NCBI GenBank assembly: GCA_016201065.1
Contig: JACQDL010000011.1
Location: forward strand, 13,772 to 77,771
DNA length: 64,000 nt
Direction of reading: 5' to 3'
Origin: Actinomycetota bacterium
Lineage (GTDB): Bacteria > Actinomycetota > Actinomycetes > Mycobacteriales > JACQDL01
The translations under genes were made by a program, and so were the position numbers. Position 1 is the stretch's first letter. Every line of letters starts with the position of its first letter. Below are positions 5,738 to 22,829 of the stretch, one piece after another. The notes beneath the pieces are model-generated. The model was not told where the DNA came from, ran no database searches, and was given only the letters and a program-made list of their open reading frames with translations.

Positions 5738-6194
5738 CGGTCAGGACGGCGACCGGACCGTCTATCAGAGTTGCCGATGGTGACGGGGCCCAGTCGGATC
5801 CGGTGAACGCCCACCATCCCCAGGAGGCCGGGTCGCCTGGCGGGCTTGCGAAGTCCGGGACGACCGCGGCGAGGAATCCACGCATTCGGATGCATCCTCG
5901 CCGGTCGGTCTCAGACAAGAACGCGGTCCGGGCGTGTGAGTGGAGGTGGGCGCGGACTTGGAGCTGGTGTTCCTCGGCGTAGGTGAACAGTCGGTCCAAT
6001 ACGGGCATGGCGAGGTGGAACTGGTCACGGCGCCTAGTGATTCCGGCGGTGCCGGCGAGTGCGACGGCGGTGACCTGCAGACCGCCGGGAGCGGTCATGA
6101 GCAGTGCCCCGGTCTCCAGTCCTAGCTCGCCGTAGCAGCGGATGTGCTCGGCGATGGCCGCTGTCGCCCCGCGCGGCAGGTCGAGGCGGCTCAT
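5709..6194 (-). CDS. JAB/MPN (JAMM) metalloprotease, deubiquitinase-like (BilC-like)
   Basis: JAMM motif HxHx7Sx2D seen as HLHSHARTAFLSETD, with an upstream Glu (LGLETGALL). 161 aa. The ATG overlaps the E2 stop (ATGA at 6191-6194). Confidence 0.85.
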   Translation of the reverse strand: MSRLDLPRGATAAIAEHIRCYGELGLETGALLMTAPGGLQVTAVALAGTAGITRRRDQFHLAMPVLDRLFTYAEEHQLQVRAHLHSHARTAFLSETDRRGCIRMRGFLAAVVPDFASPPGDPASWGWWAFTGSDWAPSPSATLIDGPVAVLTVDAGGVRAH

Positions 6195-6625
6195 GCTGCG
6201 CGTCGTCCTCCGGCCCGGTGGATGTCAGCGTGGAGGTTCTCCACCACGAAGAGGAAGGGGTTGCCAGTAGTTCGCCATACGTGTGGGCCGGACCGCCACT
6301 CGGGGTGCAGCCCTTGACCTTCGGCGGTGAACGGCTTGCACACATCGGTGGGCGCCCGATAACCCGGCGCCGACGGCCACGCCGAGGTATCGGTGGTAGC
6401 ACCGCCCGCCTCGACTGCGAATAGAACCGAGGGTGGCAGGTCGGGATAGAGGTTCCAGGCGATCCGGGCAACGAACGACGCGTGGCCATCGGGTCCGGCG
6501 ATCATCACCCAGTACAACCCGTCGGGGTCGCTGTCTCTGAGCACCAACCGTCCGCCGGCCCCGGCCAGGAAGTCCGCGACCTGGGTGGCATCCCGGTTCA
6601 GGCGCAGCTGGCTCTCCAGATCCAT
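6191..6625 (-). CDS. Prokaryotic E2/UBC-like protein (BilB-like)
   Basis: 144 aa, located between the Ubl and JAB genes. Candidate catalytic Cys in APTDVCKPF, followed by HPEW. An SD-like AGGTGA lies 7 nt upstream of the ATG. Confidence 0.7.
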   Translation of the reverse strand: MDLESQLRLNRDATQVADFLAGAGGRLVLRDSDPDGLYWVMIAGPDGHASFVARIAWNLYPDLPPSVLFAVEAGGATTDTSAWPSAPGYRAPTDVCKPFTAEGQGLHPEWRSGPHVWRTTGNPFLFVVENLHADIHRAGGRRAA

Positions 6626-6632
6626 GCCTACG

Positions 6633-6923
6633 TCACCTGGATCCAGAGATGGTCTCGGTCCGCAGCGCCAGTTTCACTTGGTGGCCGTGGCCGTGACCAC
6701 CTCTCAGGTCATCCAGAAATGTCCCGGCATCGACCTCGCTGCCGTCATGGAGCAGGTAGTACCGGGTCGTACCGTCGGCCGCAATCCCGAAGGCGGCCAG
6801 GGCGTCCGACAACACCTGTCCAACGGTCGTGGCCTTCGGGTACTCGTGCTCGTAGGGCCTGGCGGCTGCGGCGAAGGTGACGACCACCTCGACGTGGTGC
6901 TCTTCGTGGGCCTGCAGGGACAT
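6633..6923 (-). CDS. Ubiquitin-like beta-grasp protein (BilA-like / multiubiquitin-type, single domain)
   Basis: 96 aa, first gene of the operon, with strong SD ggaaggag. The pattern HVEVVVT...TTVGQVLSDALAAFGI...YYLLHDGSEVD...QVKLAL is typical of prokaryotic Ubl domains. The C-terminus is ...TETISGSR, with Gly two residues before the end. Confidence 0.65.
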   Translation of the reverse strand: MSLQAHEEHHVEVVVTFAAAARPYEHEYPKATTVGQVLSDALAAFGIAADGTTRYYLLHDGSEVDAGTFLDDLRGGHGHGHQVKLALRTETISGSR

Positions 6924-6940
6924 ATGACTCCTTCCGAGGG

Positions 6941-7031
6941 GCCGACAGCGTCGGCACTACTGCATCAGCGAAGTTGCAACGACACTTTGGCACGACGATC
7001 TGTTGCACGCAAGCGGCGCCGCACGTACTGT
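6941..7031. promoter_or_regulatory. Divergent promoter/operator region between the Ubl operon and the XRE gene
   Basis: Palindrome GCCGAC-agc-GTCGGC at 6941-6955. GTTGCAAC palindrome at 6973-6980. GTTGCACGCAA (TTGC-N2-GCAA) at 7002-7012. On the plus strand, -35 TTGCAC (7003-7008), a 17-nt spacer and -10 TACTGT (7026-7031) end 6 nt before ATG 7038, which suggests a leaderless transcript. Confidence 0.35.
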
Positions 7032-7037
7032 GCGTTC

Positions 7038-7562
7038 ATGCCGGTGGAGGGCACCGACGGGACGTCAGCAGACGACCGCGATGACTGGGTCGGGGAGGTG
7101 GAGCGCCTCGACATCGGTGCGCTCGGGCAGATGCTGCGTGAGCGCCGGGCGGGGCTTTCTATCCGGCAGGCCGCTCGGGACGCCGGGGTGAGCTTCAGCA
7201 CCTTCGCCCGGGTCGAAGGCGGCGCGCAGCCAGATCTGGCGACGTTCGCGAGACTGTGCGCCTGGCTGGGGGTGTCCCCGGCGAGGTTCTTCACCCCAGT
7301 CGTGGAGCGTGAGACATCTCCATTGGAGGACGCCATCACGCACCTGACGGGCGACCCCCGGTTGTCTGCGGTTACGGCGGGCAGGATCGCAGGAGTGTTG
7401 CGGGACATGTACGAGGCGCTCGCCCGTGACGCCGCACCACAGCCGATCATCGCCTGTCACCTCCGGGCTGCACCCCTCCTCCGCCCCGGGGTCGCCCCGC
7501 GCTTGGCTGCTCTCCTCACAGATCTGCATGACGAACTCCAGCGGCAGGTCGAGGCGCGGTAG
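7038..7562 (+). CDS. XRE-family HTH transcriptional repressor (CapH-like)
   Basis: Internal ATG at 7038 of ORF 6585..7562. HTH seen as LGQMLRERRAGLSIRQAARDAGVSFSTFARVEGG. Lies immediately upstream of an ImmA/IrrE peptidase gene (3-nt gap). Confidence 0.8.
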   Translation: MPVEGTDGTSADDRDDWVGEVERLDIGALGQMLRERRAGLSIRQAARDAGVSFSTFARVEGGAQPDLATFARLCAWLGVSPARFFTPVVERETSPLEDAITHLTGDPRLSAVTAGRIAGVLRDMYEALARDAAPQPIIACHLRAAPLLRPGVAPRLAALLTDLHDELQRQVEAR

Positions 7563-8141: not shown

Positions 8142-9523
8142 CACGGGATCGGCAAGTTGGCGTTTTAGGGCGCGAAGATGCTTGTTATGGTCGCATGTCT
8201 TGTTTGACGTAGGGACGGCTTGCTGGTAGCGGTTTCTCTGATTCATGGGGATGGCCTCTAGCCCGGCATGATCACGGGTACCGAATCCTGATCTGACCGG
8301 AACAAGAGGCCATCCATGTCAGTGTCGCACGCCCGCGAGTCCGCCATGACCAACACCGACGGGGAGGCACCTGGCCTGCTGGATGTGCTCGCGCAGGTCC
8401 GGGACCCGCGTAAGAGGCGCGGGCGCAGGTTCGGCCTGGTGTTCCTGCTCGCGGTGGCGGTGGCGTGCGTGCTGGCCGGGGCGAAGAGCTTCCGGGAGAT
8501 CGGCGACCATGCCGCCGACCTGCCGCAGGACGTACTGGCCCGGCTCGATGGGAGGCCGCATCCGCTGCTGCGGCGGATCACCGTGCCCAGCGAGACACGG
8601 ATCCGCACCCTGGTCCACGCCATCGGCGCCGATGCCCTCGATGACCTGGTCGGGGGCTGGCTGCGGGCCCTGGTGGAGGCCGGCCGGTTGGACGGGCTGC
8701 TGAGGGCGATCGCGATCGACGGGAAGTGGCTGCGTGGTGTCGCCGACGGGCAGGTGAAGCTGTTCGCCGCGATGCTGCACGAGGAGAAGGTGATCATCGC
8801 CCAGCACCGCATCCCGGACGAGACGACCGAGACCACCCAGGTCAAGGAGTTGCTGGACGCCGTGGACCTGGACAACGCGGTGGTCACCGCCGACGCGGCC
8901 CACACCCAGCGCGAGACCGCCCAGTACATCGCGGGCAGCAAGGACGACGGGAACCGCGGTTGGCGACTACTTCCTGTTCCTCAAGGGAAACCAGCCGACC
9001 CTGCAGGCCGCGGTCTTCGACGCCATCCAACACGGCGGCCCCCGCGACCCGGACCACACGGAACTGGACCACGGCCATGGTCGGATCATCCGCCGCTCCA
9101 TCTGGGTCACCGACGCCGGGGACCTGGACTTCCCGCACGTGTCCCAGGTGGCGCGGATCCGCCGCGACCGCTACGACCTCGACGGCACCCTGATCAGCAA
9201 GGAAATCGTGCACGCCGTCACCAGCCTGAAAGAAGACCGCGCCACGGCCGTGGACCTCGCAAGGATCGCCCGCGGCCAGTGGGGCATCGAATCGGCGCAC
9301 TGGCTACGCGACACCACCTACGCCGAAGACGCCAATACCGGATATGCCGGGAATGGTCCGCAGGTCATGGCCACCTTCAGGAACATCGCGGTCAGCCTGC
9401 TCCACATCGCCGGCGTCACCGAGATCACCCGCACCCTCCAGGCCATCGGACGCGACCGAACCCGCCTACTCAACTACCTACCGATATGAGACCAGTATCA
9501 CAAACGACTTTACCGATCCCGTG
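8142..9523 (+). mobile_element. ISAs1-family insertion sequence (1382 bp) with 10-bp target site duplication
   Basis: Terminal inverted repeats are CACGGGATCGG(C/T)AA at 8142 and its reverse complement ending at 9523. Flanking direct repeats ATGCTGCAAG lie at 8132-8141 and 9524-9533. It encodes an ISAs1/H-repeat-type transposase. Confidence 0.85.
8316..9489 (+). pseudogene. ISAs1-family transposase, frameshifted
   Basis: The N-terminal part is in the frame of ORF 8316 (LLDVLAQVRDPRKRRGRRFGLVFLLAVAVACVLAGAKSF...TADAAHTQRETAQYIAG). The continuation (GDYFLFLKGNQPTLQAAVFDAIQ...WGIESAHWLRDTTYAEDA) is in the frame of ORF 9139..9489. A single-nt frame change lies near 8960. Confidence 0.8.
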
Positions 9524-9584
9524 ATGCTGCAAGCACCTCAACCTCACCGGCCCAACCGTCGCGACCTGTAGTGCCGGCACCGTC

Positions 9585-9672: not shown

Positions 9673-11235
9673 TCATACTTGCCGGAGTCGTTCGATCTGC
9701 CGTTCGAGGTTGATCAGATGGGTGGAGTGCGGGCCGTAGGTGATGCGGAACGCGGGCCTGAGTTCCTCCAGTACGGCGCGGGCCTCGGCGGTGCGTTGCT
9801 CCGTCGCCAGCATCTGCGCGATGACGAACCTGCTCTCAAGCACCCGTTCGGCGTTGTCCGGGTCATCGGCCTCAACGTTGCTGGTGAAGTAACGAAGATG
9901 GGCGAGCGCGGGCGCGGGTGCCCCGATTTCGGCGTAGGCGTGCCCCGCGTGGTAGGCGCACTCCAGCACCCTCGGGTGCGACGCCACCAGACCCCCAGCA
10001 CGGTACCGTTTACCAGCCCCGGCTAGGAGGGCGGCAGCGCGCCGGTACTCGCCGACGTAGAACAGGGCCAGCCCGAGCAGTTGCTGGAGTTCCAGTTCGA
10101 AGAACGGGTTGGCTGAGGAGCGTCGCAGTCCCGCTTCGAGCAGTCGCACCGCGCCGGTGTTGTCGCCACTGTCCAGCAGTGCGGCGACCGAAACGCGGAT
10201 CTGCTCGAACTCGGCATCGGTCAACGGTGCGCCACCGCCAGCGGGTTGGCGCGGTGGAGGTGGGGCGAGCAATGGAGTTCGGAACGGCCGGGTCGGGTCC
10301 CGGTTCGCACCACCCACACCCGCCCCTGGGGTGTGGGTGAAGGTCACCAGCGTGCGGTAGACCTGCTCCGCCGACGGGCGGCTGTCGGGGTCCTTGGCGA
10401 GCATCGTGTGGAGGAGCTGCTCCACCGGTTCGGGAATGTCCGCCCGGGTGGCGCGCGCCGACGGGGCCGGGGACTGGATGTGGTGGGCGCGCAGCGAGGC
10501 GTTCGGTGTGTCCAGGAACGGTGGGTCACCAGTGAGCAACTCGAACATCAGGCAGCCGAGGGAGTAGATGTCTGAGGCGGCGGTGACGGCCCGCCCCAGG
10601 TGTTGCTCGGGCGACATGTAGGTCGGGGTGCCCACGGTGCGGTCCACTTGGGTCAGCCGCGGTAGCGCGCCCGCGCCGCGCAGGATCGCGATGCCGAAGT
10701 CGAGGACCTTCACCACGCCGCCGTCGATGACCATGATGTTGGCGGGTTTGATGTCGCGGTGGACGATGTCGACCCGGTGGACGTCTGCCAGCACGGCGGC
10801 GATCTGGGCGCCGATCGCGGCGGCCCAGGAGATCGGGGGCGGTGCGGCCTCGTAGTCGGTCCGGTCGAGGAGCCCTTCGAGGGTGGAGCCTCGCAGCAGT
10901 TGCATGACCAGCCAGATCCGGGTGGAGCCGTCGGGTTGCTCGTCAATGCCGGTGTCGTAGACCGCCGGGGTACCGGGGTGTTCCAACTGTGCCGCGGTTC
11001 GGATCTCCCGGAGGAAGCGGGCACGGTCGCGTTGTTGCGCGTCGAGTAGTTCCTGGGCCTCGGGTCCATCCCCGGTGCGGGCGTGGGTGGGTTGGCGGAG
11101 CATCTTGATGGCGATGGCTCGGTCGAGGCGCTCGTCGTGGCCGTGGTAGACCTCGCTCATCCCGCCGCGGCCGAGCAGCGCGTCGACACGGTAGCGGCCG
11201 CTGAGCAGGTGTTCCGGCTCGACCTCTGGCGTCAT
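9673..11235 (-). CDS. Hanks-type Ser/Thr protein kinase with C-terminal TPR-like domain
   Basis: Kinase motifs AIKML (VAIK), HRDIKPANIMV, DFGIA and GTPTYMSPEQ. A Pro-rich linker precedes helical repeats (LLGLALFYVGEYRRAAALL..., YHAGHAYAEIG...). The ATG overlaps the hsdR stop (ATGA at 11232-11235). Confidence 0.9.
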   Translation of the reverse strand: MTPEVEPEHLLSGRYRVDALLGRGGMSEVYHGHDERLDRAIAIKMLRQPTHARTGDGPEAQELLDAQQRDRARFLREIRTAAQLEHPGTPAVYDTGIDEQPDGSTRIWLVMQLLRGSTLEGLLDRTDYEAAPPPISWAAAIGAQIAAVLADVHRVDIVHRDIKPANIMVIDGGVVKVLDFGIAILRGAGALPRLTQVDRTVGTPTYMSPEQHLGRAVTAASDIYSLGCLMFELLTGDPPFLDTPNASLRAHHIQSPAPSARATRADIPEPVEQLLHTMLAKDPDSRPSAEQVYRTLVTFTHTPGAGVGGANRDPTRPFRTPLLAPPPPRQPAGGGAPLTDAEFEQIRVSVAALLDSGDNTGAVRLLEAGLRRSSANPFFELELQQLLGLALFYVGEYRRAAALLAGAGKRYRAGGLVASHPRVLECAYHAGHAYAEIGAPAPALAHLRYFTSNVEADDPDNAERVLESRFVIAQMLATEQRTAEARAVLEELRPAFRITYGPHSTHLINLERQIERLRQV

Positions 11236-14200
11236 GGGGTGCCTGTCTGTCTGGTCATCTCCTCGCGGAGCTTGGCCAACGCTTCATCGCGCGCCGGTTC
11301 GGTGATGATGCGGTAGGCGCGACGGCGGGCGGCCTCCTTGACGGTCGCCCGGAACTCTGGGTTGTCGAAGTAGTTCTTGGTGAAGGTGGTGTTGCGGTCG
11401 GCGTTCTCGGCGACGAGGTCGTCCAGGCGATCGTCTGCGACCTGCCCGAATCGGTCTTCGTCGTTCATCAACGCGATCTGCTGCATGCCGGTGTCTTGGA
11501 CCAGGCCGGTGATCTGCTGGTAGATGAGGATCTCATCGGAGGTGCCCAGGCCGAGGCCGAACCGGTCGTTGAGTTCGGCGATCACCTCCGCCAGGGGCGC
11601 CATCTCGGGTTCGTGGCGGCCACCGCCGTCGGCGGCGTGGCCCCGCACGTCACGGTCACCGACGGCGGTCAGAGACACATCGTGCTTGCCGGTGAACTCC
11701 AACCGGAAGTGGGTCAGGTCGGCGTCGCCGACGTCGACCGCGGTCGAGGGGCGCCCCGGCAGGCGGACCAGCAGGATCCGGCCGTACTGGTAGAGCCGCT
11801 CCAGGTCGGGATCACCCCAGTCGATGATCTGTGCGAGCAGGCTGTAGGCACGCAGATAGGTCTGCAGGGCGCTGCGGAAGCCCTCACGCTCGTCATCGGT
11901 GTCCAGTGCCCGGAACCGGTCGACCGCGGGGGTGAGGTACTGGTGCAGCCGGGCGTGGAGCTTCTTCTCCGCCGTGGCCGGCAGCCGGTCGGGTCCCGCT
12001 TCACCGAGGACCCGCAGGAACGCCTGCATTTCCGAGGCCGCCAGCAGCCCGTACTCCATGACTTCGCGTTGCTTGTCGTAGAGCAGGTTGGGGTCGGCGG
12101 GCTCGGTGATCGTCGTTTCGAACCAGTCCTTGAACGCCTCCTGGATGGTGGCGGCGTCGTTGACGAAGTCCAGGATCCGTACGTCGTCCTGGGCTTTCAA
12201 CGGGTGGATCCGGTTGAGGCGCGACAGGGTCTGCACCGCGGCGACACCTGTCAGGGGCTTGTCGACGTACATGCCACACAGCAGCGGCTGGTCGAACCCG
12301 GTCTGGTACTTCTCCGCCACGACCAGCAACCGGTACTCCTCCTGGTCGCGGGCAGGAGCCTGCGGGTCGTCGGCCTTGGTGTAGGCGAACCGGTCGGGTA
12401 GTTGCGTCTCCCCGAACCCGTTCAGCTGCGCCTCGGTGTACTCCACCCCGGTGGACTCCTCCGTCAGCGACCCCGAGAACGCCACCAGCACCCCTAGGTG
12501 GTGGCCGCGTTCGTGGACGTGCCGGCGGATCGCCTGGTACAGGTCCAGGGCGTCCTGCCGGCTGCCGGTGACGACCATCGCCTTCGCCCGCCCACCCAGC
12601 CGGGGCTCGATGTCCTCCTGGAAGTCCTCGACGATCAGCTTGGCCTTCTGCGCGAGGGAGTTGGGGTGCCGTAGCGCCATGCGCACCAGCTTGGCTTTCG
12701 CCTTGGCCTCATCGACGTCGGGGTTGCTGATCGCCGAATCAAGCTGGTCGAGGGCGGCATTGCGCAGCCGCCACTTGGTGTCGTAGGTGAGGTAGTTGGC
12801 CAGCACGTCGAGGATGTAGCCCTCCTCGATCGCCTGGCGCATCGAGTACACGTGAAACGGCACGTACATGCCTGGTGTCGCATCATGCGGGTTAACCCGG
12901 TCCGGGTCCCAGGTGCCGAACAGCTTCAGGGTTGGTGACTTCGGGGTGGCGGTGAACGCGAAGTAGGACAGGTTCGGTTGCCGGCCCCGCACCCGGGTGA
13001 GGTAGGTGGCCTCGTCCTCCTCCTCATCCGCTCGGGCAGCGTTGACGCCGAGGGCCTGCTTGAGGCGGGTCGCGGCGTCCCCACCCTGGGAGGTGTGTGC
13101 CTCGTCGATGATCACGGCGTAGCGGCGACCACCCAAACCCGCGCCGGCGATCTTGTCCAGGATGTAGGGGTACTTCTGCAGCGTGCTGACTACGATCTTG
13201 GATGTGGCGTCCTCCAACGCGGCGGCGAGCTGGGTCGAGTCATCGTCGATCGTCTTGACCACACCGGGTTCGTGGTCGAACTGGAATATCGTCCGCTGCA
13301 ACTGCCGGTCCAGCGCGGTCCGGTCGGTGATCACCACCGTCTTGTGGAACACCGGGTGATTGTCGTCGTCGAAGAGGCTCGACAACCGGTGGGCCAGCCA
13401 GGCGATCGTGTTGGACTTACCCGAACCTGCCGAGTGTTGGATCAGGTAGTTGCTGCCCGCGCCGTGCGTGCGGGCGTGCGCGACCATCTTCTGCACGGCG
13501 TCCCACTGGTGGTATCGGGGGAAGATCCGGGGCGTGGTGTGCGGGCTGACCCATACCCCCTTCTTCTCCGCTTCCTGGACGTGCACGAACCGTTGTAGGA
13601 TCTCCAACCAGTTGTCCCGCTGCCAGATCTGCTCCCACAGGTACCCCACCGCGTAGCTGCCGGGCTCCGCCGGCGGGTTCCCGGATCCCCCACTCACCCC
13701 GGGGCCGCGCGAACCAATGTTGAATGGCAGGAACTGCGTGTCCTCACCCGCAAGACGGGTCGCCACGTATGCACGGTCCGGGTCAGCCGCGAAGTGAACC
13801 ACCGCACGCTTGGCGAACAACAGCTCGTTCGGATCTCGGGAACGGTACTGCGCGATCGCATGATTCACGTTTGTTCCAGTATTGGGATTCTTTAGCTCCG
13901 CGGTCGCCACCGGAATACCATTCACGAACAGGACAACATCAACCGACTTCTTGCGATCCCGGGTACTGAAGTGCACCTGCCGCGCCACGGTCAGGATGTT
14001 CGCGCCGTATTCACGCAACGCATCCGCAGCGAGTGTGTGACCGGGGCGGAAGTAGGCCAGATCAACCAGGATCCCCCGATCCTTCACACCGTAGCGGAGC
14101 ACATCGAGCACACCACGAGCATCCACCTCGGACGCCACACGCTGCGCGAACCGTCCCCGCGCCTCGGCCGCACTCCCGTAGAGCTCGACCAGCCTGTCCC

Positions 14201-14360
14201 AGCTCTCTCGCTGGCTCCCCCCGATGAACCGGAACAGCTCAGTGATATCCAAACCCAGATCCGCCTGGTACGTACCCTGGGCCATCACCCAGCCGCGTGC
14301 AAGCAGCTCGTACTCTGCACGTCCCTCAAAGCCACGCTCCCAATGCGCACCGGGACTCAT
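11232..14360 (-). CDS. hsdR: Type I restriction enzyme R subunit
   Basis: 1042 aa. Walker A HSAGSGKSNTIAW, DEAH box VIIDEAHTSQ, and the N-terminal nuclease region typical of HsdR. The ATG overlaps the stop of the reconstructed hsdS. Confidence 0.95.
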   Translation of the reverse strand: MSPGAHWERGFEGRAEYELLARGWVMAQGTYQADLGLDITELFRFIGGSQRESWDRLVELYGSAAEARGRFAQRVASEVDARGVLDVLRYGVKDRGILVDLAYFRPGHTLAADALREYGANILTVARQVHFSTRDRKKSVDVVLFVNGIPVATAELKNPNTGTNVNHAIAQYRSRDPNELLFAKRAVVHFAADPDRAYVATRLAGEDTQFLPFNIGSRGPGVSGGSGNPPAEPGSYAVGYLWEQIWQRDNWLEILQRFVHVQEAEKKGVWVSPHTTPRIFPRYHQWDAVQKMVAHARTHGAGSNYLIQHSAGSGKSNTIAWLAHRLSSLFDDDNHPVFHKTVVITDRTALDRQLQRTIFQFDHEPGVVKTIDDDSTQLAAALEDATSKIVVSTLQKYPYILDKIAGAGLGGRRYAVIIDEAHTSQGGDAATRLKQALGVNAARADEEEDEATYLTRVRGRQPNLSYFAFTATPKSPTLKLFGTWDPDRVNPHDATPGMYVPFHVYSMRQAIEEGYILDVLANYLTYDTKWRLRNAALDQLDSAISNPDVDEAKAKAKLVRMALRHPNSLAQKAKLIVEDFQEDIEPRLGGRAKAMVVTGSRQDALDLYQAIRRHVHERGHHLGVLVAFSGSLTEESTGVEYTEAQLNGFGETQLPDRFAYTKADDPQAPARDQEEYRLLVVAEKYQTGFDQPLLCGMYVDKPLTGVAAVQTLSRLNRIHPLKAQDDVRILDFVNDAATIQEAFKDWFETTITEPADPNLLYDKQREVMEYGLLAASEMQAFLRVLGEAGPDRLPATAEKKLHARLHQYLTPAVDRFRALDTDDEREGFRSALQTYLRAYSLLAQIIDWGDPDLERLYQYGRILLVRLPGRPSTAVDVGDADLTHFRLEFTGKHDVSLTAVGDRDVRGHAADGGGRHEPEMAPLAEVIAELNDRFGLGLGTSDEILIYQQITGLVQDTGMQQIALMNDEDRFGQVADDRLDDLVAENADRNTTFTKNYFDNPEFRATVKEAARRRAYRIITEPARDEALAKLREEMTRQTGTP

Positions 14361-14552
14361 GCTACCCCTCGCCTCGCCGTAGTTGCGTCGAGCTGACCGG
14401 TCACGGCGGCAGTTATAACTGCCTGACGGCGTTCAGACAGAAGCTCTCGGAGACGGCCAACTTCATCGCGCAGCGGTCTCGTTACGCGAATCGCATTCCC
14501 GATTTCGCGCTGCTCCATCGGATGAACGCGGGGAACCGCTATGCTTCCGAAA

Positions 14553-16255
14553 GTAAGCAGTCAGGGGTAGGCGGTTTGGGTGGTTACGCTGCGAGAGCGG
14601 ATGCGGTGGTGTTGCGGGGTGGCATCCAGGCGGTGTTGTTGAGGGCGTCGCGGATCGCGTCGAGGGGCCGGCAGCCGTGGTTGCGGGCGGTGATGAGGTA
14701 GGACCGGATGCGGCAGTGGCGTTGCAGGGTGGCCAGGGTGCGCCAGCAGCCGGAGACCTTCTGGGCGAGCTTGAAGCCACGGATCGCGGCTTCGGATCCG
14801 TTGTTCGTGGGGGGCACGTCGGTGCGGGTGGTGAACAACCACACCTGGTCGGTTTTGCGTTTCAGGCGTCTGGCGAGGACCAGACCGGGGTGGTTGCCCT
14901 TGGGCCAGGGCCGGGAGGTGTTGATCGAGATCCCGCAGGCCACGGCCTGGTCGAACTTCTCGCGGGCCCGGGTGATGGCGTCGGCATCCAGGGCGGTGCC
15001 GTTGCGGCGGGTGTGGTTGACGGCGTGGATCGCCACCCGTAGGGCGTCGGCGGCCTGGATGCTCCAGGCCTGGGTGAGTGGGTCGATGTCGGTGACGTCC
15101 TGTAGGTGGCGGAGCATGTGAGCAAGGCATTGCTGCACGCCCGCCAGGCCGGTGTCATAGGACAGGTACCCACCGAAGTCGTCACGAACCAGGGTCCCGG
15201 TGTAGTTGTCCAGTATCGGCGAACGCGGTGATCTCCTTCTTGGTGCGGGTCCCGGCCGCACCGAACCACACCAGGTCCGCCCCACCACCGGTGTAGCCGT
15301 GCAGGGTCCGCACGGTGAACACGTGCGGGTTGCTGATGTCCGCACCCGTCGTGGCGGCCTGGGTGGTGGCGCCGGAGGTGCTGATCGGGGCGGGTGTCTC
15401 ATCGGTGCCCAGCACGTCGGCTTCGCACAGCGCCGCCTTCAACGCCTCCTCGAATCCGGCCCCGCTCAACGCGGCATCCAACCGGGCCAGGCAAGCCGAG
15501 ACGTACCCGGTGGAGACCGGCACCCCCAACAGCGCCGACATCATCTCCGCAGCCCGCTCGACGCCGATCACGTCCTGGGACGCCAGCCATGTCGAGGCCG
15601 CCGCGACCTGCGGGCCATAGCAGGCCGGACCACCCCGCACCCCGACCGGCAGCTCCGCGGTCGTGGCACACCCACACGCACAGACCCGCCGCATGATCAG
15701 GTACTCGGTCACCGTCACCGCCAACACGGGCAGGTCGAACACCTGCACATTGGAGGCGACCGACCCGCGCGCACCGACCAAACTGCCACCACAACCGGAG
15801 CACACGGCAGGCTCCACCGCGTCGGTCCGGTCCGCCTCCGCCACCCGCGCCAGACCACGACCCCGATGCCCCGGCTGCCCACCCTGCTTCCGCTTGACCA
15901 CACCCCGCCCGGGTGACCCCACCGCGTCCGACCCATCGGAGGAGTCGTCCCCGGACCCGGCGCTCCCACCGGGCTTGGCCCTCGCCCTCGACGCGGGCCC
16001 GTCCTGGCTCGGTGGCAGCGACGAGTTCGACGAATCCCGGCCCGCGGCCCGCCGCAACGCGACCAACTCCACCCGCATCGCCTCGATCAGCGCCGCCTGC
16101 TCAGCCAACTGCGCGCTCTGCACCGCGACCAGCGCCACCAACTCCTCATACGAGGCCGGCACGGGCGAATCAGACACGCCCCAGAGTCAAACATGATCAA
16201 ACCCCAGCCAGCAACACCGACCCACCCCAGCTCACCCGGGGGCCTGACTGCTTAC
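14553..16255 (-). mobile_element. IS66-family (single-ORF type) insertion sequence, 1703 bp, 8-bp target site duplication
   Basis: Terminal inverted repeats are GTAAGCAGTCAGG at 14553-14565 and its reverse complement CCTGACTGCTTAC at 16243-16255. Direct repeats TTCCGAAA lie at 14545-14552 and 16256-16263. Confidence 0.85.
14584..16177 (-). pseudogene. IS66-family transposase, frameshifted
   Basis: The N-terminal ORF 15182..16177 has a leucine-zipper-like LAEQAALIEAMRVELVALRR and zinc-finger CSGCGG. The C-terminal ORF 14584..15402 reads DNYTGTLVRDDFGGYLSYD...QQCLAHMLRHL. A single-nt frame change lies near 15213. Confidence 0.8.
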
Positions 16256-17275
16256 TTCCGAAACGCTCCCAATTTCGAAAGTCTATCGCCCGCTCACGAG
16301 CACTGCCACCGAAGAGACTTAGATACCCATCCAGAGCAAGGATACGAAGCAGTCGCCCATAGAATGCGGCATCGCCACTGTCTCGCGGAAGACACACGTG
16401 ATAGACTGGACTGCAGATGCCGCTAGATTCCGAGTCGCCGATAGAGCCAGCGAATCCATCTAATCCATGTACCACTACATCCCCGACCTCGACCCCCTGA
16501 ACATACGGATCAGACTTGGCCGATTCGGTGAATCCGTGCGTCCGCCGCTCGTCGCGCGCTACCACTTGACCGTCACGAAATTCTGACACAATCGAATCTT
16601 GGGTAGCTCGCCGCTGCAACTTCACAATTAGTCGCTTCAGCGGGACGAGATCAGACCCGTCAACGCTGGCAATCTTACTTCGACCGATCACCGTTCGCAC
16701 ACGCGCATCGACACGATCATTGTTTAGATCTACCAGTCGCCGATTGGCCTCTAGCAATCGGTCTATCGCGTCAACCTTGGCGTCAAGGAAGTCGACGATG
16801 CGCTGTTGCTCATCTAGTGGTGGGTGGAGCAGCGGGAGCAAACGAAGTGAGTCCCAAGGGACATCGAACTGAGACGGCGGCATGAACTTCGATATTCTCG
16901 TCAGTTCGGACAAATAAGGTCTCGAAAGAAGCAGATAATTCAGATATCGAGGAGACCAGCCAGAGTTCGGGCGACAGACGTAGTATGCGGGACTAACAAT
17001 TCCGTCTCGGGGAGAAACGCCGAGACCTCCCTGCCAAGTCCGTAGCTTGTTGAACACTACATCGCCGACCCGGACATATTGATACTTGCCGAGGTCCTCG
17101 CCGAGGTTATTGTGGTTGTCCGACCGAGATTCCCTGGGAATCACTCCAGCATTCAGAAATACGGACAGTGGTTCAGCTTCTGGCTTGCCAGTTTCTTGTA
17201 TCCTCCGAGTGGCCACGCAGAGTCGCATCCACCGCCAGCCATCGGGTAGATCAATTTCCTGCAGCACTCCTTGAC

Positions 17276-19252
17276 TCACCCTGTCACCTTGCCCAGCAGT
17301 TTCTGGATCTGCGCCTCCAGGTCCCGCAGTTCGACGTCGATCTCCGCCAGCGGCCGGGGCGGCGTGTAGACGTAGAAGTGACGGGTGAAGGGGATCTCGT
17401 AGCCAACCTTGGTCTTCTCGCGGTCGATCCACGCATCTGGGACATGCGGAGTCACCTCCCGCTGGAAGTACTCCTCGATGTCCTCGTCGAGCGGAATGTT
17501 CTCATAGTCGCGCAGGTCTGGGTCGGGCAGCACCTGGCCCTTGGCCCTTTGCACCTCGCCTTCGGGATCAGAGACTGCCACGGCGCCCCAGATTCCTTTG
17601 AGGATCGACTGGGTCGAAGGCCAGAACACACCGGCCCTACGCCCGGCGGCGCGTAGGGCGTCGCTAGCTTCGGCCTTCGTCCACCACGTCGTGCCAAGGA
17701 GGGGACGTACTGCCCCGAGAAAGGCGTCTCGCTGCTCCCATTTCCCGAGCGGTTTCGCGTGTTCGAGGGCAGCGAGGGTGTCCTCGGTGATCTCGAAGCG
17801 CTGCTTGAGAGGACGCTCAACGGTGATCCGGTGGTAGCCGAAGTCGCGAGTACGGAACACCTTGACCCTCCCGTGGTCGGGGTGTTCGGGGTCGGCCGCG
17901 ATGGCGAGCGCGTTGCCGTAGACGGTGGTGATGTGATCGATCTGGGCGTCGCTGATGAGTTTGCGCTTGTCGCCCAGTGATTTGCGCATCTTTTCCCACT
18001 GGTCCCGGGCATCGAGCAGGATCACCTTGTCGCGCAACACTGGGGATTTGCGGTTGGAGAGGATCCAGAAGTAGGTGGAGATGCCTGTGTTGTAGAACAG
18101 CTGGTCGGGCAGGGCGACGATGCCTTCCAGGAGATCGTTCTCAAGGATCCACTGTCTGATGCGTGACTCGCCTGAGCCAGCGGCCCCGGTGAACAGGGGT
18201 GATCCGTTGAAGACGATGGCGAGACGGCAGCCCTTGCCCTCGATCGGCTCCATCTTGGAGATCATGTGTTGGAGGAAGAGGAACGACCCGTCGTTGATCC
18301 GCGGCAATCCGGCCCCGAACCGACCCGCATGGCCCTGTTCCGCCTCGCGTTCGACAGTGTCCTTGACCTTCTTCCACTCCACCCCGAAAGGTGGATTGGC
18401 GAGCATGTAATCGAACGTCTTGCCCTGGTGCGCGGGCGCGCTGAAGGTGTTACCGAAGGCGATCGTGCCGCGGTGTTCGCTGATCAACATGTCTGCCTGA
18501 CAGATCGCCCACGACTCCCCGTTAACCTCCTGTCCGAACAGGTACACCTCCGCCTTCGGGTTGATCTCCTTGATGCGGTCCTCGGCCGCGGTGAGTATCC
18601 CACCGGTCCCGCAGGCCGGGTCCAGGATGTTGATTACCTGCCCGTCTCCGGCCACCGTGTCCGAGTCCGGTGCGATGAGGAGGTTCACCATGAGCTTGAT
18701 GACCTCGCGGGGGGTGAAGTGCTCACCGGCGGTCTCGTTGGAGTCCTCAGCGAACTTGCGGATCAGGTGCTCGAAGACATACCCCATGTCGTGGTTGGAC
18801 AGCTTGTCCAGGTCCCGCATCGCGGCGAACCGCCCCACGACCTGATAGAGGAGTTTCGCCCCCATCAGGCGTGTGATCTGTTCATCCAGCTGGAACCGCT
18901 TCAGGATGTCCTGGACGTTCGGGGAGAAACCGTTGACGTAGTCGCGGAGGTTCTTCGCGGTTCGGGCCGCATCCGCCGCGATCGACTCGAAGTCCTGGCT
19001 GGAGACGTTGTAGAAGGGTAGCTTCGCCGCGCGGGTCAGGAGCGGATGCTTGTTCTCGATGCCGGCGCTGTGCTTGTTGCGTTCGTGGACCGCATCCCGG
19101 GTCGGCGCCATCACCGAGTCCAGGCGACGCAGCAGCGTGAACGGCAAGATGGCCTGACCGTACTCGTGGCGCTTGTAGTCACCACGCAGCAGGTCGGCAA
19201 CGGCCCAGATCTCGCTGGCCATCCGAGTGTGGCTCGGACCGGAACTGGTCAC
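17276..19252 (-). CDS. hsdM: Type I R-M DNA methyltransferase subunit
   Basis: 658 aa. Motif I ILDPACGTGGIL and motif IV DYMLANPPFGVEW, with an HsdM N-terminal domain. The start overlaps the upstream gene's stop (ATGA at 19249-19252). Confidence 0.95.
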   Translation of the reverse strand: MTSSGPSHTRMASEIWAVADLLRGDYKRHEYGQAILPFTLLRRLDSVMAPTRDAVHERNKHSAGIENKHPLLTRAAKLPFYNVSSQDFESIAADAARTAKNLRDYVNGFSPNVQDILKRFQLDEQITRLMGAKLLYQVVGRFAAMRDLDKLSNHDMGYVFEHLIRKFAEDSNETAGEHFTPREVIKLMVNLLIAPDSDTVAGDGQVINILDPACGTGGILTAAEDRIKEINPKAEVYLFGQEVNGESWAICQADMLISEHRGTIAFGNTFSAPAHQGKTFDYMLANPPFGVEWKKVKDTVEREAEQGHAGRFGAGLPRINDGSFLFLQHMISKMEPIEGKGCRLAIVFNGSPLFTGAAGSGESRIRQWILENDLLEGIVALPDQLFYNTGISTYFWILSNRKSPVLRDKVILLDARDQWEKMRKSLGDKRKLISDAQIDHITTVYGNALAIAADPEHPDHGRVKVFRTRDFGYHRITVERPLKQRFEITEDTLAALEHAKPLGKWEQRDAFLGAVRPLLGTTWWTKAEASDALRAAGRRAGVFWPSTQSILKGIWGAVAVSDPEGEVQRAKGQVLPDPDLRDYENIPLDEDIEEYFQREVTPHVPDAWIDREKTKVGYEIPFTRHFYVYTPPRPLAEIDVELRDLEAQIQKLLGKVTG

Positions 19253-20952
19253 GTCGTTCCCCTTAGCTTCTTATCGGTCTCAGTATCGATAGTCTCGCCC
19301 GGGCCCACCGCTGCCGGCATCAGGGCTCCGGTGGTCAAGCCGTATATAGTCTGGTCCAGGATCGCTCGGGTCACCCCAGCCAGACGGTCCGCCACCATCT
19401 CCAACTGCTCCAGCAGCCGGAAGGCGTCTCCGTAGCGACGCTGCTCGGCCAGGGTCAACCGTGGTATCCGGCAGCGTCGCACGTCGTCGCGGGTCAGCGC
19501 GCCGTGGGTGTTCGCCACCGGCGCCGCCAACGCGTCGGTCCGCACGAACCGTGCAACAAAATGCGGATCCAGGCGGTCGGTGTCGATTCCGATCACTTGG
19601 GCGATGCCCCGTTCGTCCTCCGGCGTCCCGCGGGCCACGACCGGTTCGCGCCCCATGGTGCGAAACAGCAGATCACCCGCCCGGGGAGTGGCATCCCGTG
19701 GCAGGATCGTGAGCGCCTTGGACCGTTCCAGCTCACCCAACGTCACCTCAGGAAATCGTGGTGGCACGCCCGGCGCCACTGGCCTCGGTAGTGCCTGTCC
19801 GAGCTTGGCGTGCAGCCTCGCCACCCGATGGGTGAACTGCCCGAGGTCGGCGACCGACTCACCGAACCGGGCCCGCAGGTACCGCGACGGCACCAGCGGC
19901 ACCTCACCATCCAACAGCTCCGCCTGCGGCACCACCCGCGCCACCGGCGCGTGATCCCCGGCCCACAGCGCGTGCCAGGCCGCGTGCACCTGCGGCACGT
20001 CCGCAGCAGCACCGACCCCGGTCAGATCCACCATCCGCACACCCCGTGCGACACCGCCACGCTGTAGCACCCACAGGTGCACCGCACCCGCACCGGAGGG
20101 TGTCAAGCCCTCCGGCAATGCGATGACCGCACGTAGCACCCCAGCCCGCACCAACGCATCCCGCACGTGACGGCCGGAAGGACGCACCCCCGTCACCGCC
20201 GGCACCATCACCACAGCCATCCCACGCGGACGCAGGTGCCCCAGGCAGTGCTGCACCCACGCCAACTCCGGATCGGCCGGATCGGGCAGGCCGTACCGCC
20301 ACCGTGGATCGGCGGCAAGGTCCGGCGCGGGCCACTGCCGCACCGATGGCGGCGGGATGCACACCACCGCGCGTGCGGTCGCGCGGGACGCGGCGAACCG
20401 GTCCGCCTGCAGCGCATCACCCACCCGAACATCCGCATCGAGGCCAGACAGCGATCGGCGCACCGCCTCGGCGTGGACCTCATCCGGGGCCTGCCCAGCA
20501 AGGCGCACATGGTCACCGAACCGCTCGGCTACCGCCGTGAGGACAATCGCGTCCCGGCACGCCGGATCCAACACGACTGGGGGGTCCACCTCGTCGCCGG
20601 GACGATCGGTATCACCCAGGCGGGGCAACAGGGACACCACCACGCGCGCTAGCAGCTCCGGCGGGGTCAACGCTGTCGGGCCACGATCGGGATTCCCTGG
20701 CGGCGATGCGTCACCGAGCTGCTGCGTCCCGGTGCTGGTACGGCCCTCCGCCGCAAGCTGCTCCGCCTTCCCCGTGTCCACGAGCCACTGCTGCACAGCG
20801 GCCCAGGAGAACAACGGGCTGTTGGGCCCACCCGCGACGGGCTGCGGGAATTCGGGATACCGCCTGCGCCAGTTCGCCACCGCCGCTCGGCCAACACCGA
20901 CCCGCCGGGCGATCCATGCGGCGGTGACGGCGCCCGAGACCTCACTGTTCAC
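19249..20952 (-). CDS. HTH + N6-methyltransferase-like (degenerate motifs) + HsdS-like TRD fusion protein
   Basis: 567 aa, GTG start. N-terminal HTH (VTAAWIARRVGVGRAAVANWRRRYPEFPQP). The central gamma-class MTase-like fold has motif I as VLDPACRDAIVL (no GxG) and motif IV as VVCIPPPSV (no NPPF/Y). The C-terminal half-TRD with conserved helix reads CRIPRLTLAEQRRYGDAFRLLEQL. Confidence 0.7.
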   Translation of the reverse strand: MNSEVSGAVTAAWIARRVGVGRAAVANWRRRYPEFPQPVAGGPNSPLFSWAAVQQWLVDTGKAEQLAAEGRTSTGTQQLGDASPPGNPDRGPTALTPPELLARVVVSLLPRLGDTDRPGDEVDPPVVLDPACRDAIVLTAVAERFGDHVRLAGQAPDEVHAEAVRRSLSGLDADVRVGDALQADRFAASRATARAVVCIPPPSVRQWPAPDLAADPRWRYGLPDPADPELAWVQHCLGHLRPRGMAVVMVPAVTGVRPSGRHVRDALVRAGVLRAVIALPEGLTPSGAGAVHLWVLQRGGVARGVRMVDLTGVGAAADVPQVHAAWHALWAGDHAPVARVVPQAELLDGEVPLVPSRYLRARFGESVADLGQFTHRVARLHAKLGQALPRPVAPGVPPRFPEVTLGELERSKALTILPRDATPRAGDLLFRTMGREPVVARGTPEDERGIAQVIGIDTDRLDPHFVARFVRTDALAAPVANTHGALTRDDVRRCRIPRLTLAEQRRYGDAFRLLEQLEMVADRLAGVTRAILDQTIYGLTTGALMPAAVGPGETIDTETDKKLRGTT

Positions 20953-20990
20953 ACTTAGACCGTATCACGTCGTTAGTTGGTCTGTGAACA
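20946..20990. promoter_or_regulatory. Inverted repeat spanning the start codon of the HTH-methylase-like gene
   Basis: TGTTCACA at 20946-20953 and TGTGAACA at 20983-20990 form a perfect 8-bp inverted repeat. Extra GACC/GGTC pairing lies in the AT-richer divergent intergenic region. The GTG start (20952) sits inside the left arm. Confidence 0.3.
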
Positions 20991-21122
20991 TCTTACAAAC
21001 GCTCACATGATGCTACGGTGTCTCCGTCGTTGCACGCGGTCCTCCCGCCATCCGGGCCGCGAAGCACGGCCCCATCAGGACCGGAGCTGATCCGGTTCGA
21101 GACCACGAAAGGAACCCACGCC

Positions 21123-22829
21123 ATGCCAAACAGCAGCTCGCACCAGCGCCATCGGGTGCGCCACAAGCAGCGGCGCACGGCCGTCGCGCCCACCCGCCCG
21201 GTCACCCTGCACCGGCTGCTTGAGGGCAGCAGCTTCGACGACGCACTGGACTACCTCGAAGACCAAGCGCTGGAGGACCTCGATGCGAACGTGGACTTCG
21301 TGGAACTGCCCGGATCGCGTGCACTGTTCGTGCATGCCCAGGAGCCCGCCCGACCGGCGGAGTGGTGCGCCCAGGCGAGCATCACGACCGGGATCGACGT
21401 TCGCTATGCCACCCGCGGCGCCGGAGGTCTCCTGATCTTCCAGCTCGACGGCGACGTGTACGCCCTCGGCTACGGCAAGGGCCACCTCTGGCTCAGCGAC
21501 GCGGTGAAGGACCCGCGTTTCGGCCTCCACTACGCCATCCGCAGCGTGGACGCCGACCAGATCCTCGACGTAGTGCGTCGACTACCCGGCGCACGAGGCC
21601 GCACCGACAGCACCCTCGTTCCCGGTGGCACCACAGTCTGGCAGCTTGGGATCGAGCGCCATGCCGAGATCGTCCGCCGGATCGGCGGCCTGGTCGAGAA
21701 CAGCTCCTTGACCTTCGCGCGGGCCCGCGGGCGCTCGGTCAAGGTCGCCGGTGCCTGCGGGCTACATCTGCGCCTGGGCGTGAAGCCGGCGGACCTCGTA
21801 TCGGACGTACGCGAGATCGCCGCCGTATGCCTCCGCCAGGTCCCACACCCCGACCTTGCATTCGTGGAGAACGTCACGCCCGTCACCAGCCAGGCCCTCA
21901 TCGCGGACCTGAACACGCAGCTCGACACGCTCCTCGGCGAGGTCACCCCCGCTGTGGACCGGCTCACGGTCACAGTCCCCGATGCCGCCCTGCCACACCT
22001 GGCGGACGCCCACGGGTTCGCTGTGCGCATCGGCAGCGCCACCAGGAGGCTCACCGATCTACACCGCGAAGACGTACTCGACCGGACCCGGCTGCAGCCG
22101 CCTGGTCGGCGCATCGACGGCCTACGAGCAGGGTGGATCGGCCTGTTGGCTGAGGACACGGGCACCCGGTCCCTGGGCAGATCATCGGCGTTGAAGTGGA
22201 TCGAAGCCACCGCGTCAGTGGGCCCGCGCCGGTTCTTCCTGCTGGAGGGCCAGTGGTACGAGTTCGGTGCCACCTATCTTGAGGAGGTCCGCGACTACAT
22301 CGGCGGCCTGCTGAATCGCGGCGCCCCCACCCTCGACCTGCCCGCCTGGCGCCCCGATATGAAGGAGAAGGACTACAACCTTTACGTAGCCGACGTGCGG
22401 CGCAGCCAGTATCTCTGCCTCGACCGGCGCGGAGTTACCACTCGCCTACACCGCACACACGGCGTCGAAATCTGCGATCTACTCGGCCCGAACGACGAAC
22501 TCATCCACGTCAAGCGCGCCAGCGGATCTCCGCCGCTCAGCCATCTCTTCGCGCAAGGCCAAGTCGCCGCCGAGACTCTGATCAACTCGCCCGAGGCCCG
22601 GCGTTCCTTCTCCAAGCTCGTGGGCACCGCTGGCCGGGGCCGCACGATCCCGGAAGACTTCACCCCCAAGAAGATCGTCTACGCCATCCTGCTCAAGAAC
22701 GGCGAGGCCCTGACACCGGATACCCTGTTCCCGTTCTCACAGGTCGCTCTCCGCCAAGCCAGCATCTCCCTCCGGGGAAAGACCGAGGTGGAGATCATCC
22801 CGATCCACTTGGCGCAGCCCGGCCCATGA
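21123..22829 (+). CDS. TIGR04141/DUF6119-like sporadically distributed protein with putative PD-(D/E)xK-like C-terminal core
   Basis: ATG at 21123 is preceded by gaaagga. The C-terminal signature is YNLYVADVRRSQYLCLDRRGV...GVEICDLLGPNDELIHVKRASGSPPLSHLFAQGQVAAETL, matching the pattern I recall for TIGR04141. It lies divergent to the R-M operon. Confidence 0.65.
   Translation: MPNSSSHQRHRVRHKQRRTAVAPTRPVTLHRLLEGSSFDDALDYLEDQALEDLDANVDFVELPGSRALFVHAQEPARPAEWCAQASITTGIDVRYATRGAGGLLIFQLDGDVYALGYGKGHLWLSDAVKDPRFGLHYAIRSVDADQILDVVRRLPGARGRTDSTLVPGGTTVWQLGIERHAEIVRRIGGLVENSSLTFARARGRSVKVAGACGLHLRLGVKPADLVSDVREIAAVCLRQVPHPDLAFVENVTPVTSQALIADLNTQLDTLLGEVTPAVDRLTVTVPDAALPHLADAHGFAVRIGSATRRLTDLHREDVLDRTRLQPPGRRIDGLRAGWIGLLAEDTGTRSLGRSSALKWIEATASVGPRRFFLLEGQWYEFGATYLEEVRDYIGGLLNRGAPTLDLPAWRPDMKEKDYNLYVADVRRSQYLCLDRRGVTTRLHRTHGVEICDLLGPNDELIHVKRASGSPPLSHLFAQGQVAAETLINSPEARRSFSKLVGTAGRGRTIPEDFTPKKIVYAILLKNGEALTPDTLFPFSQVALRQASISLRGKTEVEIIPIHLAQPGP

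Follow-up and report, generated by a model that had tools for sequence, protein, structure and literature searches.

The window analysed here, a stretch of 64,000 nucleotides from an Actinomycetota bacterium (contig JACQDL010000011.1, positions 13,772 to 77,771 of the forward strand), carried an operon of five genes on its minus strand, at 9673-20952. Its core was formed by three type I restriction-modification (R-M) genes, hsdM, hsdS and hsdR. A gene for a 567-residue methyltransferase (MTase)-like protein, hereafter p567, preceded the core, and a gene for a Hanks-type Ser/Thr kinase (STK) with a C-terminal tetratricopeptide repeat (TPR)-like domain followed it. The five-gene block was conserved across genera of Actinomycetota, and the copy in the window was disrupted by an insertion sequence (IS). 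The features of the locus, numbered from the first letter of the window, were as follows.

9673-11235, minus strand: STK kinase gene, the last gene of the operon; 520 amino acids (aa); Pkinase domain.
11232-14360, minus strand: hsdR; 1042 aa; HSDR_N, SWI2_SNF2, ResIII and T1R_D3-like domains; PD-(D/E)xK nuclease plus superfamily 2 (SF2) translocase.
14357-14544, minus strand: 3' fragment of hsdS; C-terminal conserved helix; ends in a TGA that overlaps the hsdR ATG.
14553-16255, minus strand: IS66-family element of 1703 bp that splits hsdS; DDE_Tnp_IS66 matches.
16256-17279, minus strand: 5' fragment of hsdS; target recognition domain (TRD) 1, central conserved region and most of TRD2; its GTG start overlaps the hsdM stop.
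16197-17432, minus strand: open reading frame (ORF) holding the 5' part of hsdS, with HsdS encoded from the GTG at 17279; PADLOC Specificity_I.
17276-19252, minus strand: hsdM; 658 aa; HsdM_N and N6_Mtase domains.
19249-20952, minus strand: p567, the first gene of the operon; 567 aa; weak N6_Mtase match.
20959-20964, minus strand: -10-like hexamer TACGGT, 6 nt 5' of the p567 GTG.
20983-21007, no strand: operator-like palindrome TGTGAGCG-N9-TGTTCACA in the p567/DUF6119 intergenic region.
21018-22829, plus strand: DUF6119/TIGR04141 gene, divergent from the operon; likely true start near 21120.

The genes of the operon were joined by 4-nt start/stop overlaps, all of which we read directly from the sequence. 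The tetranucleotide was GTGA at the p567/hsdM (19249-19252) and hsdM/hsdS (17276-17279) junctions, and ATGA at the hsdS/hsdR junction with the IS removed (14357-14360) and at the hsdR/kinase junction (11232-11235). A first-pass annotation of this DNA had listed the same four overlaps, and all four were there; the ATGA it had given for 19249-19252 was the one tetranucleotide to be corrected. Its description of a translationally coupled five-gene operon fits the IS-free reconstruction and not the window copy as it stands, which is interrupted. The gene inventory of 9673-20952 gave the five genes and the IS alone, and no additional ORF was present at the junctions, which overlap tightly. We found no terminator-like internal site on the coding strand of the operon. 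The GC content of the window was high, at about 0.60-0.76.

The IS66-family element was bounded by perfect 13-bp inverted repeats GTAAGCAGTCAGG at 14553-14565 and 16243-16255, and flanked by an 8-bp target duplication TTCCGAAA at 14545-14552 and 16256-16263. Since the ends and the duplication are perfect, the insertion appears to be recent. Its transposase was encoded by two ORFs, at 15182-16177 (331 aa) and 14584-15402 (272 aa), which overlap at 15182-15402; this split could reflect a frameshift, programmed or inactivating. Excision of the element together with one copy of the target repeat gave an in-frame HsdS of 403 aa, whose TGA overlaps the hsdR ATG. As read from its sequence, the window copy of the operon is thus disabled by the insertion in hsdS.

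A scan with the p567 family profile, covering one genome per species, returned at least 577 loci, of which 80 were kept: 14 with a p567 of at least 44% identity and 66 more distant ones at 31-39% identity. Three neighbourhoods had been inspected first, those of Streptomyces anthocyanicus (CP109571, L001), of Marinactinospora rubrisoli and of a metagenomic contig of 1 Mb. Each of them held a divergent DUF6119 gene, an N6_Mtase-like gene of ~ 560-590 aa, and genes for HsdM, HsdS, HsdR and the kinase. With these three added to the 14 loci of at least 44% identity, the colinear block p567-HsdM-HsdS-HsdR-STK was present in 17 of 17 loci, within unrelated flanks, in Streptomyces, Nocardia, Actinomadura, Nonomuraea, Acrocarpospora, Sinosporangium, Marinactinospora, Pseudonocardiaceae and others. 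An independent test used metagenome contigs anchored on an HsdM of at least 60% identity; p567 lay upstream of HsdM in 36 of the 39 evaluable contigs, and the kinase gene came after hsdR in 18 of 19. HsdM relatives at 44-48% identity belonged to ordinary type I loci with neither p567 nor the kinase. The 4-nt overlap of p567 and hsdM was seen in 35 of 61 loci and that of hsdR and the kinase gene in 12 of 36; the other junctions were mostly gaps shorter than 100 nt, and for hsdR and the kinase gene mostly gaps of 13-103 nt. Chance adjacency is excluded by the conservation of the block across genera, the HsdM-anchored linkage and the tight junctions.

The first-pass annotation had asked whether the kinase gene and the 567-residue gene are conserved beside hsdMSR in related genomes, and both are, at every one of the 17 loci. 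Its reading of the operon as a composite of R-M with signalling or abortive infection gained support from comparative genomics as far as the architecture goes (17/17, 36/39 and 18/19), whereas a signalling or abortive-infection function is only what we infer. No PADLOC v2 or NCBIfam model describing this architecture was found, and no paper in the searchable literature. One survey remarks that studies in Actinobacteria have covered very few defence systems. Two of the loci are worth describing individually. In L100 (16238-21941), housekeeping genes for a SAICAR synthetase and a CoA transferase begin right after hsdR, which suggests kinase loss or an island boundary. In the close homologue L102 (6431-11886), two inserted genes separate hsdS from hsdR, a DUF6879 gene and a gene for a 788-aa NB-ARC/TPR protein, a signal transduction ATPase with numerous domains (STAND NTPase). 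They are a further case of foreign defence-like genes embedded in such an R-M locus.

Within the core, HsdM matched N6_Mtase (PF02384, E 2.5e-57) and HsdM_N (PF12161, E 1e-19) in the domain search, and aligned over its full length with the PADLOC model MTase_I (PDLC03029, E 4.5e-248). Its catalytic motifs I and IV, DPACGTGG and NPPF, were intact, as expected for an active-looking type I N6-adenine methyltransferase subunit. HsdS matched PADLOC Specificity_I (E 4.9e-33). HsdR matched TIGR00348 with E 3e-57 and 194.5 bits, under the cut-off of 284.55, and the nuclease motif D...ELK, the Walker A motif GSGKS and the DEAH motif could all be read in its sequence. The motifs claimed earlier for HsdM and HsdR, and the kinase signatures described below, were confirmed in this way. 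At the level of sequence, the core has the components that define a type I R-M system: HsdM, an HsdS with two TRDs, and HsdR. Across 57 loci, the mean identity of the HsdS TRDs was 0.19-0.28 vs 0.40-0.53 for the conserved regions of HsdS. With TRDs hypervariable across the same loci, the core behaves as a real R-M system that diversifies its specificity.

The first gene product, p567, comprised, from N to C terminus, an AlpA/excisionase-like helix-turn-helix (HTH), a Thr-rich disordered linker, an HsdM-like Rossmann domain, one TRD-like domain and a long C-terminal helix. Its match to N6_Mtase was weak (E 5e-16). A profile search of the PDB returned HsdM subunits (PacII M1, E 3e-21, and EcoR124 HsdM), and the N terminus matched an HTH DNA-binding domain. 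The AlphaFold2 (AF2) model had a predicted local distance difference test score (pLDDT) of 74, and its best Foldseek matches were PacII M1/M2, EcoR124 HsdM and MTase-TRD enzymes of the M.TaqI type. The C-terminal 175 residues aligned to the second TRD and terminal helix of HsdS (hhalign probability 93.8%, E 1.7e-7), and this profile-profile match backs the earlier assignment of a TRD to the 567-residue protein.

The catalytic motifs of p567 were degenerate. In the window, motif I read DPACRDA and motif IV read CIPPPS. All 25 aligned members of the family kept the VLDPAC start of motif I and had lost the glycine-rich S-adenosylmethionine (SAM) loop, and all 25 carried C-[E/I/V/T/L]-PP-x in place of NPPF. 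As the catalytic residues are lost in every aligned member, their loss is a family trait and not decay in the genome of the window, and the label of pseudo-MTase given in the first-pass annotation extends to the whole family. The best-conserved parts of p567 were the HTH (mean pairwise identity 0.68) and the TRD-like domain (0.67). The conservation of this TRD-like domain, while the TRDs of HsdS vary, suggests that p567 recognises something constant. Another conserved element, the motif TGK..QL..GRT.TGTQ (residues 60-77, ~ 20722-20775 of the window, minus strand), followed the HTH in the low-pLDDT segment, with T72, T74, T76 and Q77 invariant or nearly so in the 25-member alignment. It was found only in the R-M-embedded clade of p567. 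Actinobacterial kinases have a preference for TQ, and the Thr-rich linker is a candidate phospho-acceptor for the kinase of the operon.

The kinase contained a Pkinase domain at residues 15-294 (E 1.1e-41) and a TPR-like domain at about 340-520. The AIK, HRD, DFG and SPE motifs were read in the window sequence, and K44, E77, HRD159-161, K163, N166, DFG179-181 and SPE208-210 were invariant in 20 homologues. With all the Hanks catalytic signatures in place, the earlier description of an active-looking Hanks kinase stands, and the protein is predicted to be a soluble, catalytically competent Ser/Thr kinase. The TPR repeats described earlier were recovered less clearly, as a weak match to an NCBIfam TPR model (E 2.5e-5, residues 357-506) and as TPR_12/TPR_14 Pfam matches in many full-length homologues. 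The protein was 100% identical to one from an "Actinobacteria bacterium" metagenome-assembled genome, its next relatives were from Pseudonocardia, and more than 100 full-length homologues at 59-78% identity were present in Actinomycetota. The PADLOC match to PD-T4-6 (E 4.5e-82, from a collection without curated cut-offs) covered the generic kinase domain alone, at residues about 8-310. The same domain alone accounted for the matches to PADLOC mad6 and to NCBIfam PknB-type models, which were far under the equivalog cut-offs.

The regions upstream of p567 in the close loci (L004-L017 and L085-L146) shared three elements: a palindrome, a CTTGC element and a TAnGGT/TAnAGT hexamer. With at most one mismatch per half-site, the palindrome, with the consensus TGTGAACA-N8-12-TGTTCACA, was present in 26 of 48 close loci and mostly ended ~ 40 nt before the p567 start. 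In a search of 4.76 Mb at this tolerance, the sites upstream of p567 made up nearly all matches, and more degenerate versions were visible in the remaining close loci. The half-sites TGTSAAC/TGTGTAC, a family defined post hoc after viewing the data, stood upstream of 45 of 48 close and 34 of 64 distant p567-like genes vs 2% of random 120-nt windows. The TAnGGT or TAnAGT hexamer lay 6-9 nt before the p567 start codon in homologous loci, a spacing that suggests a near-leaderless or leaderless promoter. Because the palindrome also occurs in loci without DUF6119 (e.g. L011 and L013), it belongs to p567. As p567-like is the sole gene common to all architectures and its HTH is conserved, autoregulatory binding is the simplest reading, and p567 would bind this putative operator.

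The divergent gene next to the operator encoded a protein with matches to DUF6119 (PF19614, E 1e-114) and TIGR04141 (E 3e-111). It was upstream of p567 in 13 of 17 genome loci and 5 of 19 metagenome loci, and elsewhere it stood alone or beside a DUF499/helicase cluster (L166-L168), which makes it a facultative partner. Its AF2 model had a pLDDT of 81, and no fold match was found for it in the PDB. We also observed that E450, D453, K465, S474 and Q479 are invariant in the C-terminal part of the protein. If the conserved operator and promoter are counted, as well as the divergent DUF6119 gene that is often present, the unit extends beyond five genes.

The 66 distant p567-like loci were mostly without type I genes, and in about half of them a kinase gene lay directly downstream on the same strand. 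A full-length homologue of the kinase-TPR protein and a p567-like gene occurred together, in the absence of R-M genes, in L028, L037, L050, L043 and L060, whereas L039 and L054 held a divergent version of the complete five-gene block. Since p567-like and kinase genes occur together without R-M, they look like the core signalling pair, with type I R-M nested between them in one clade. At least 13 of the distant p567-like/kinase loci, in Nonomuraea, Amycolatopsis, Nocardia and Streptosporangium, added a divergent PP2C phosphatase gene. The R-M-less trio of divergent PP2C, p567-like and Ser/Thr kinase genes was located at ~ 9100-13400 in L034, L036, L038, L040, L046, L049, L051, L057, L059, L062, L071, L081 and L083, and had its own conserved upstream motif, CATTGGTTGA..CTTCACAAGCA. 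In ~ 20 Streptomyces loci, the p567-like gene was convergent with a UvrD-McrC-McrB cluster, sometimes with DUF6119 upstream. Loci with convergent genes for a UvrD helicase, McrC and McrB (AAA_5 with DUF4357) included L047, L055, L061, L063, L068, L075, L078 and L080 (10000-17000), and the upstream motif of this type was TGTGTACGTTGTCAACG ... CGTGTACGCTGG. DUF6119 and McrBC-UvrD are alternative neighbours of p567-like genes.

The surroundings of the operon in the window contained further mobile and candidate defence genes. An IS4/IS5-like transposase gene (DDE_Tnp_1_assoc and DDE_Tnp_1, 8316-9524, plus strand) lay directly downstream of the kinase gene and, together with the IS66 copy, marks the region as a mobile-element hotspot. 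Farther out, at 5709-6625 (minus strand) and 6585-7562 (plus strand), an ORF with a Prok-JAB domain (161 aa) overlapped an unannotated ORF of 144 aa and adjoined a gene for an HTH_31 protein. This cluster might be a further small defence or toxin-antitoxin-like module of the same island.

The interpretation that we favour, if with considerable reserve, is that the locus represents a conserved actinobacterial composite defence operon, in which type I R-M is nested between paired accessory genes and p567 is a regulator or sensor switched by the kinase. As part of the same explanation, and just as tentatively, p567 would be a fusion of HsdM and a TRD that has been exapted, its methyl-transfer chemistry lost and an HTH acquired. 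A p567 dimer would bind the conserved palindromic operator beside its own near-leaderless promoter, shared with the divergent DUF6119 gene, and would serve as the dedicated DNA-binding regulator and sensor of the operon. The kinase, with its TPR domain as a sensor, would respond to an infection-linked cue and switch p567, e.g. via the invariant Thr-rich linker, and/or the R-M subunits, so that restriction, and possibly a growth-arrest response, would come under phospho-control. The sequences themselves show the gene content, its conservation and interleaved order, the state of the motifs, the operator, and the pairing of p567-like genes with kinases apart from R-M; the binding of p567 to the operator, the substrates of the kinase and the trigger are the parts of this scheme that we infer.

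Several observations speak against the regulator interpretation. A plain transcription factor needs no conserved MTase-like fold and TRD, and regulation may not be the whole function of p567. Those distant p567-like proteins that likewise pair with kinases lack the Thr-rich linker, and among the evaluable close loci one, L100, has no kinase. A consensus promoter scan found no sigma-70-type site. The link between p567 and the operator comes from co-occurrence, with the half-site family being a post hoc one, and another regulator could bind the operator. Finally, DUF6119 is only a facultative neighbour.

It is also possible, if doubtful, that p567 and the kinase form a guard module of Actinomycetota. 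In such a module, a dead, TRD-bearing mimic of the type I MTase would sense either anti-restriction proteins of phages or, at a fixed site, the state of the DNA, the TPR-Hanks kinase would signal, PP2C would reset the R-M-less versions, and restriction, DUF6119 or growth arrest would be induced. Our main rival explanation, which we consider somewhat unlikely and which is not mutually exclusive with the regulator model, is a decoy: the dead p567 would mimic the M2S1 methyltransferase, its DNA-binding groove would act as bait for phage anti-restriction proteins, DNA mimics of the Ocr/ArdA type, and occupancy of this bait would fire the kinase via the TPR domain, which would phosphorylate proteins of host or phage and abort the infection once restriction is neutralised. 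This logic resembles that of PrrC/EcoprrI, Ronin and PARIS. It would suit a protein that retains the HsdM fold and one TRD without the chemistry, all the more as this TRD is invariant, which fits a constant ligand, and the p567 model has among its structural neighbours HsdM chains that were solved in complex with Ocr and ArdA. Ronin consists of RonA with HsdM and HsdS, but no HsdR, and works with a catalytic-site mutant of HsdM, so its activity is independent of HsdM catalysis (bioRxiv 10.1101/2023.04.06.535777); the p567/kinase pair likewise exists without R-M. The decoy leaves the strongly conserved HTH and the operator unexplained, and no toxic effector domain besides the kinase is evident.

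A role of the kinase in controlling restriction seems unlikely. The enzyme would phosphorylate HsdR or HsdM to gate restriction, either for alleviation and self-protection when DNA is damaged or at the establishment in a new host, and p567 would serve the R-M complex as an accessory subunit for assembly or regulation. Phosphorylation of the HsdR subunit of EcoKI has reportedly been observed. The position of the kinase gene would agree with such a role, given that its start overlaps the hsdR stop in the window and in 12 of 36 loci, and that it follows hsdR in 18 of 19; Pgl offers a precedent for interplay between an MTase and a kinase (PMC4365076). However, p567-like/kinase pairs occur in many loci without HsdM, HsdS and HsdR, where an R-M subunit cannot be the primary substrate, which weakens the model, and a conserved phospho-acceptor in HsdR or HsdM was not identified. 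Even less probable is co-localisation alone, i.e., that p567-kinase and type I R-M are independent, uncoupled systems sharing an island. Defence genes do cluster in islands, p567-like genes also adjoin McrBC-UvrD clusters and DUF6119, other genes can enter the loci, like the STAND NTPase between hsdS and hsdR in L102, and the kinase is missing from one locus (L100). Nevertheless, across genera the R-M genes lie between p567 and the kinase, in an unvarying order, on the same strand and with junctions that overlap or are very short; the HsdM of this clade is almost never without p567 (36/39), the kinase gene comes after hsdR in 18 of 19, and the coding strand lacks an internal terminator-like site.

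We reject the proposal that p567 is an active second methyltransferase, as in two-MTase (M1M2S) type I systems like PacII, and regard it as very improbable indeed. Such systems exist (PMC9613975 and PMC5100572), and it is PacII M1/M2 that p567 matches best in structure and sequence. Yet the first residue of its motif IV is E, I, V, T or L and never D, N or S, and the glycine loop of motif I is missing from all 25 members. Moreover, unlike M2 subunits, p567 bears its own TRD and HTH, and HsdS already has two TRDs for two copies of HsdM.

Among the closest known systems is the one named in the first-pass annotation, which had pointed to accessory effectors within type I R-M loci and named PrrC. 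In PrrC-EcoprrI, an anticodon nuclease is encoded in a type I R-M locus and is thought to be a second line of defence once restriction has been countered. The two loci have in common a non-R-M accessory gene that is co-transcribed with hsdMSR in the case of PrrC; the accessory genes here encode a dead HsdM-TRD-HTH fusion and a Hanks kinase, and flank the core rather than lying inside it. Regulation by C proteins offers a different parallel. C proteins are about 80-100 aa long and belong to type II R-M systems. There as here, an HTH protein is encoded first in the operon, a palindromic operator lies at the promoter of its gene, and the protein would time or limit R-M expression, whereas p567 has 567 residues that include an MTase-like fold and a TRD, has a kinase for a partner, and binds its operator only putatively. 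The single-gene kinase defences Stk2 and PD-T4-6 employ a Hanks-type kinase as an anti-phage effector, as the operon may do. In contrast to PD-T4-6, the kinase described here has a conserved TPR tail and was always the last cistron, never stand-alone, in the loci examined.

Ronin, as well as the decoy/programmed-cell-death R-M system EcoR22I, uses type I methylase-like proteins beyond methylation, and Ronin couples an R-M-derived module to a non-nuclease effector. It differs in that p567 is naturally degenerate family-wide, is fused to a TRD and an HTH and stands beside a complete HsdMSR, and in having a 61-aa membrane toxin where the operon has a kinase. Neither a PrrC anticodon nuclease nor a small membrane toxin like RonA is encoded in 9673-20952. 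The MADS operon (mad1-8) encodes, among others, an N6-MTase, a specificity subunit and a Ser/Thr kinase (bioRxiv 10.1101/2023.03.30.534895). It shares these three components with the operon, recognises a bipartite type-I-like motif and is also present in Streptomyces, but it has eight genes and no canonical HsdR. Membership in MADS was rejected, with 45 vs 720 bits for MADS2 and 131.7 vs 460 for MADS6; the six proteins matched no other NCBIfam MADS family, and the PADLOC mad matches were limited to mad2 and mad6, at domain level. Pgl/BREX type 2 (PglW kinase, PglX MTase, PglY and PglZ; PMC4365076) is likewise an actinobacterial defence that joins a Ser/Thr kinase and an adenine methyltransferase, whereas the core here is a classical HsdMSR with no PglY/PglZ homologues. 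Assignment to BREX-2/Pgl was rejected as well (PglW NF033442, 41.6 vs 990 bits; no PglZ or PglY/DUF499 domain in the operon). The operon is most like a guarded or regulated R-M system, and the theme of an MTase plus a kinase is common to it, Pgl and MADS.

Beyond the first-pass annotation, our analysis adds the operator with the promoter, the core pair of p567 and kinase, DUF6119 as a facultative partner, and the contrast between the diversifying TRDs of HsdS and the constant TRD of p567. The DUF6119/TIGR04141 family gains a defence-linked context. For experiments, the operator and near-leaderless promoter, the invariant residues of the kinase and the Thr-rich linker offer cheap and concrete handles. 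Type I R-M systems are mostly viewed as three-gene units complete in themselves; in soil Actinomycetota, an entire clade of them almost always comes flanked by p567 and a kinase. If the coupling is functional, Ser/Thr phospho-signalling would be wired into restriction, as has until now been seen in Pgl/BREX-2 and MADS alone, and the operon would be an actinobacterial example of exapted R-M proteins serving as sensors or regulators, as in Ronin.

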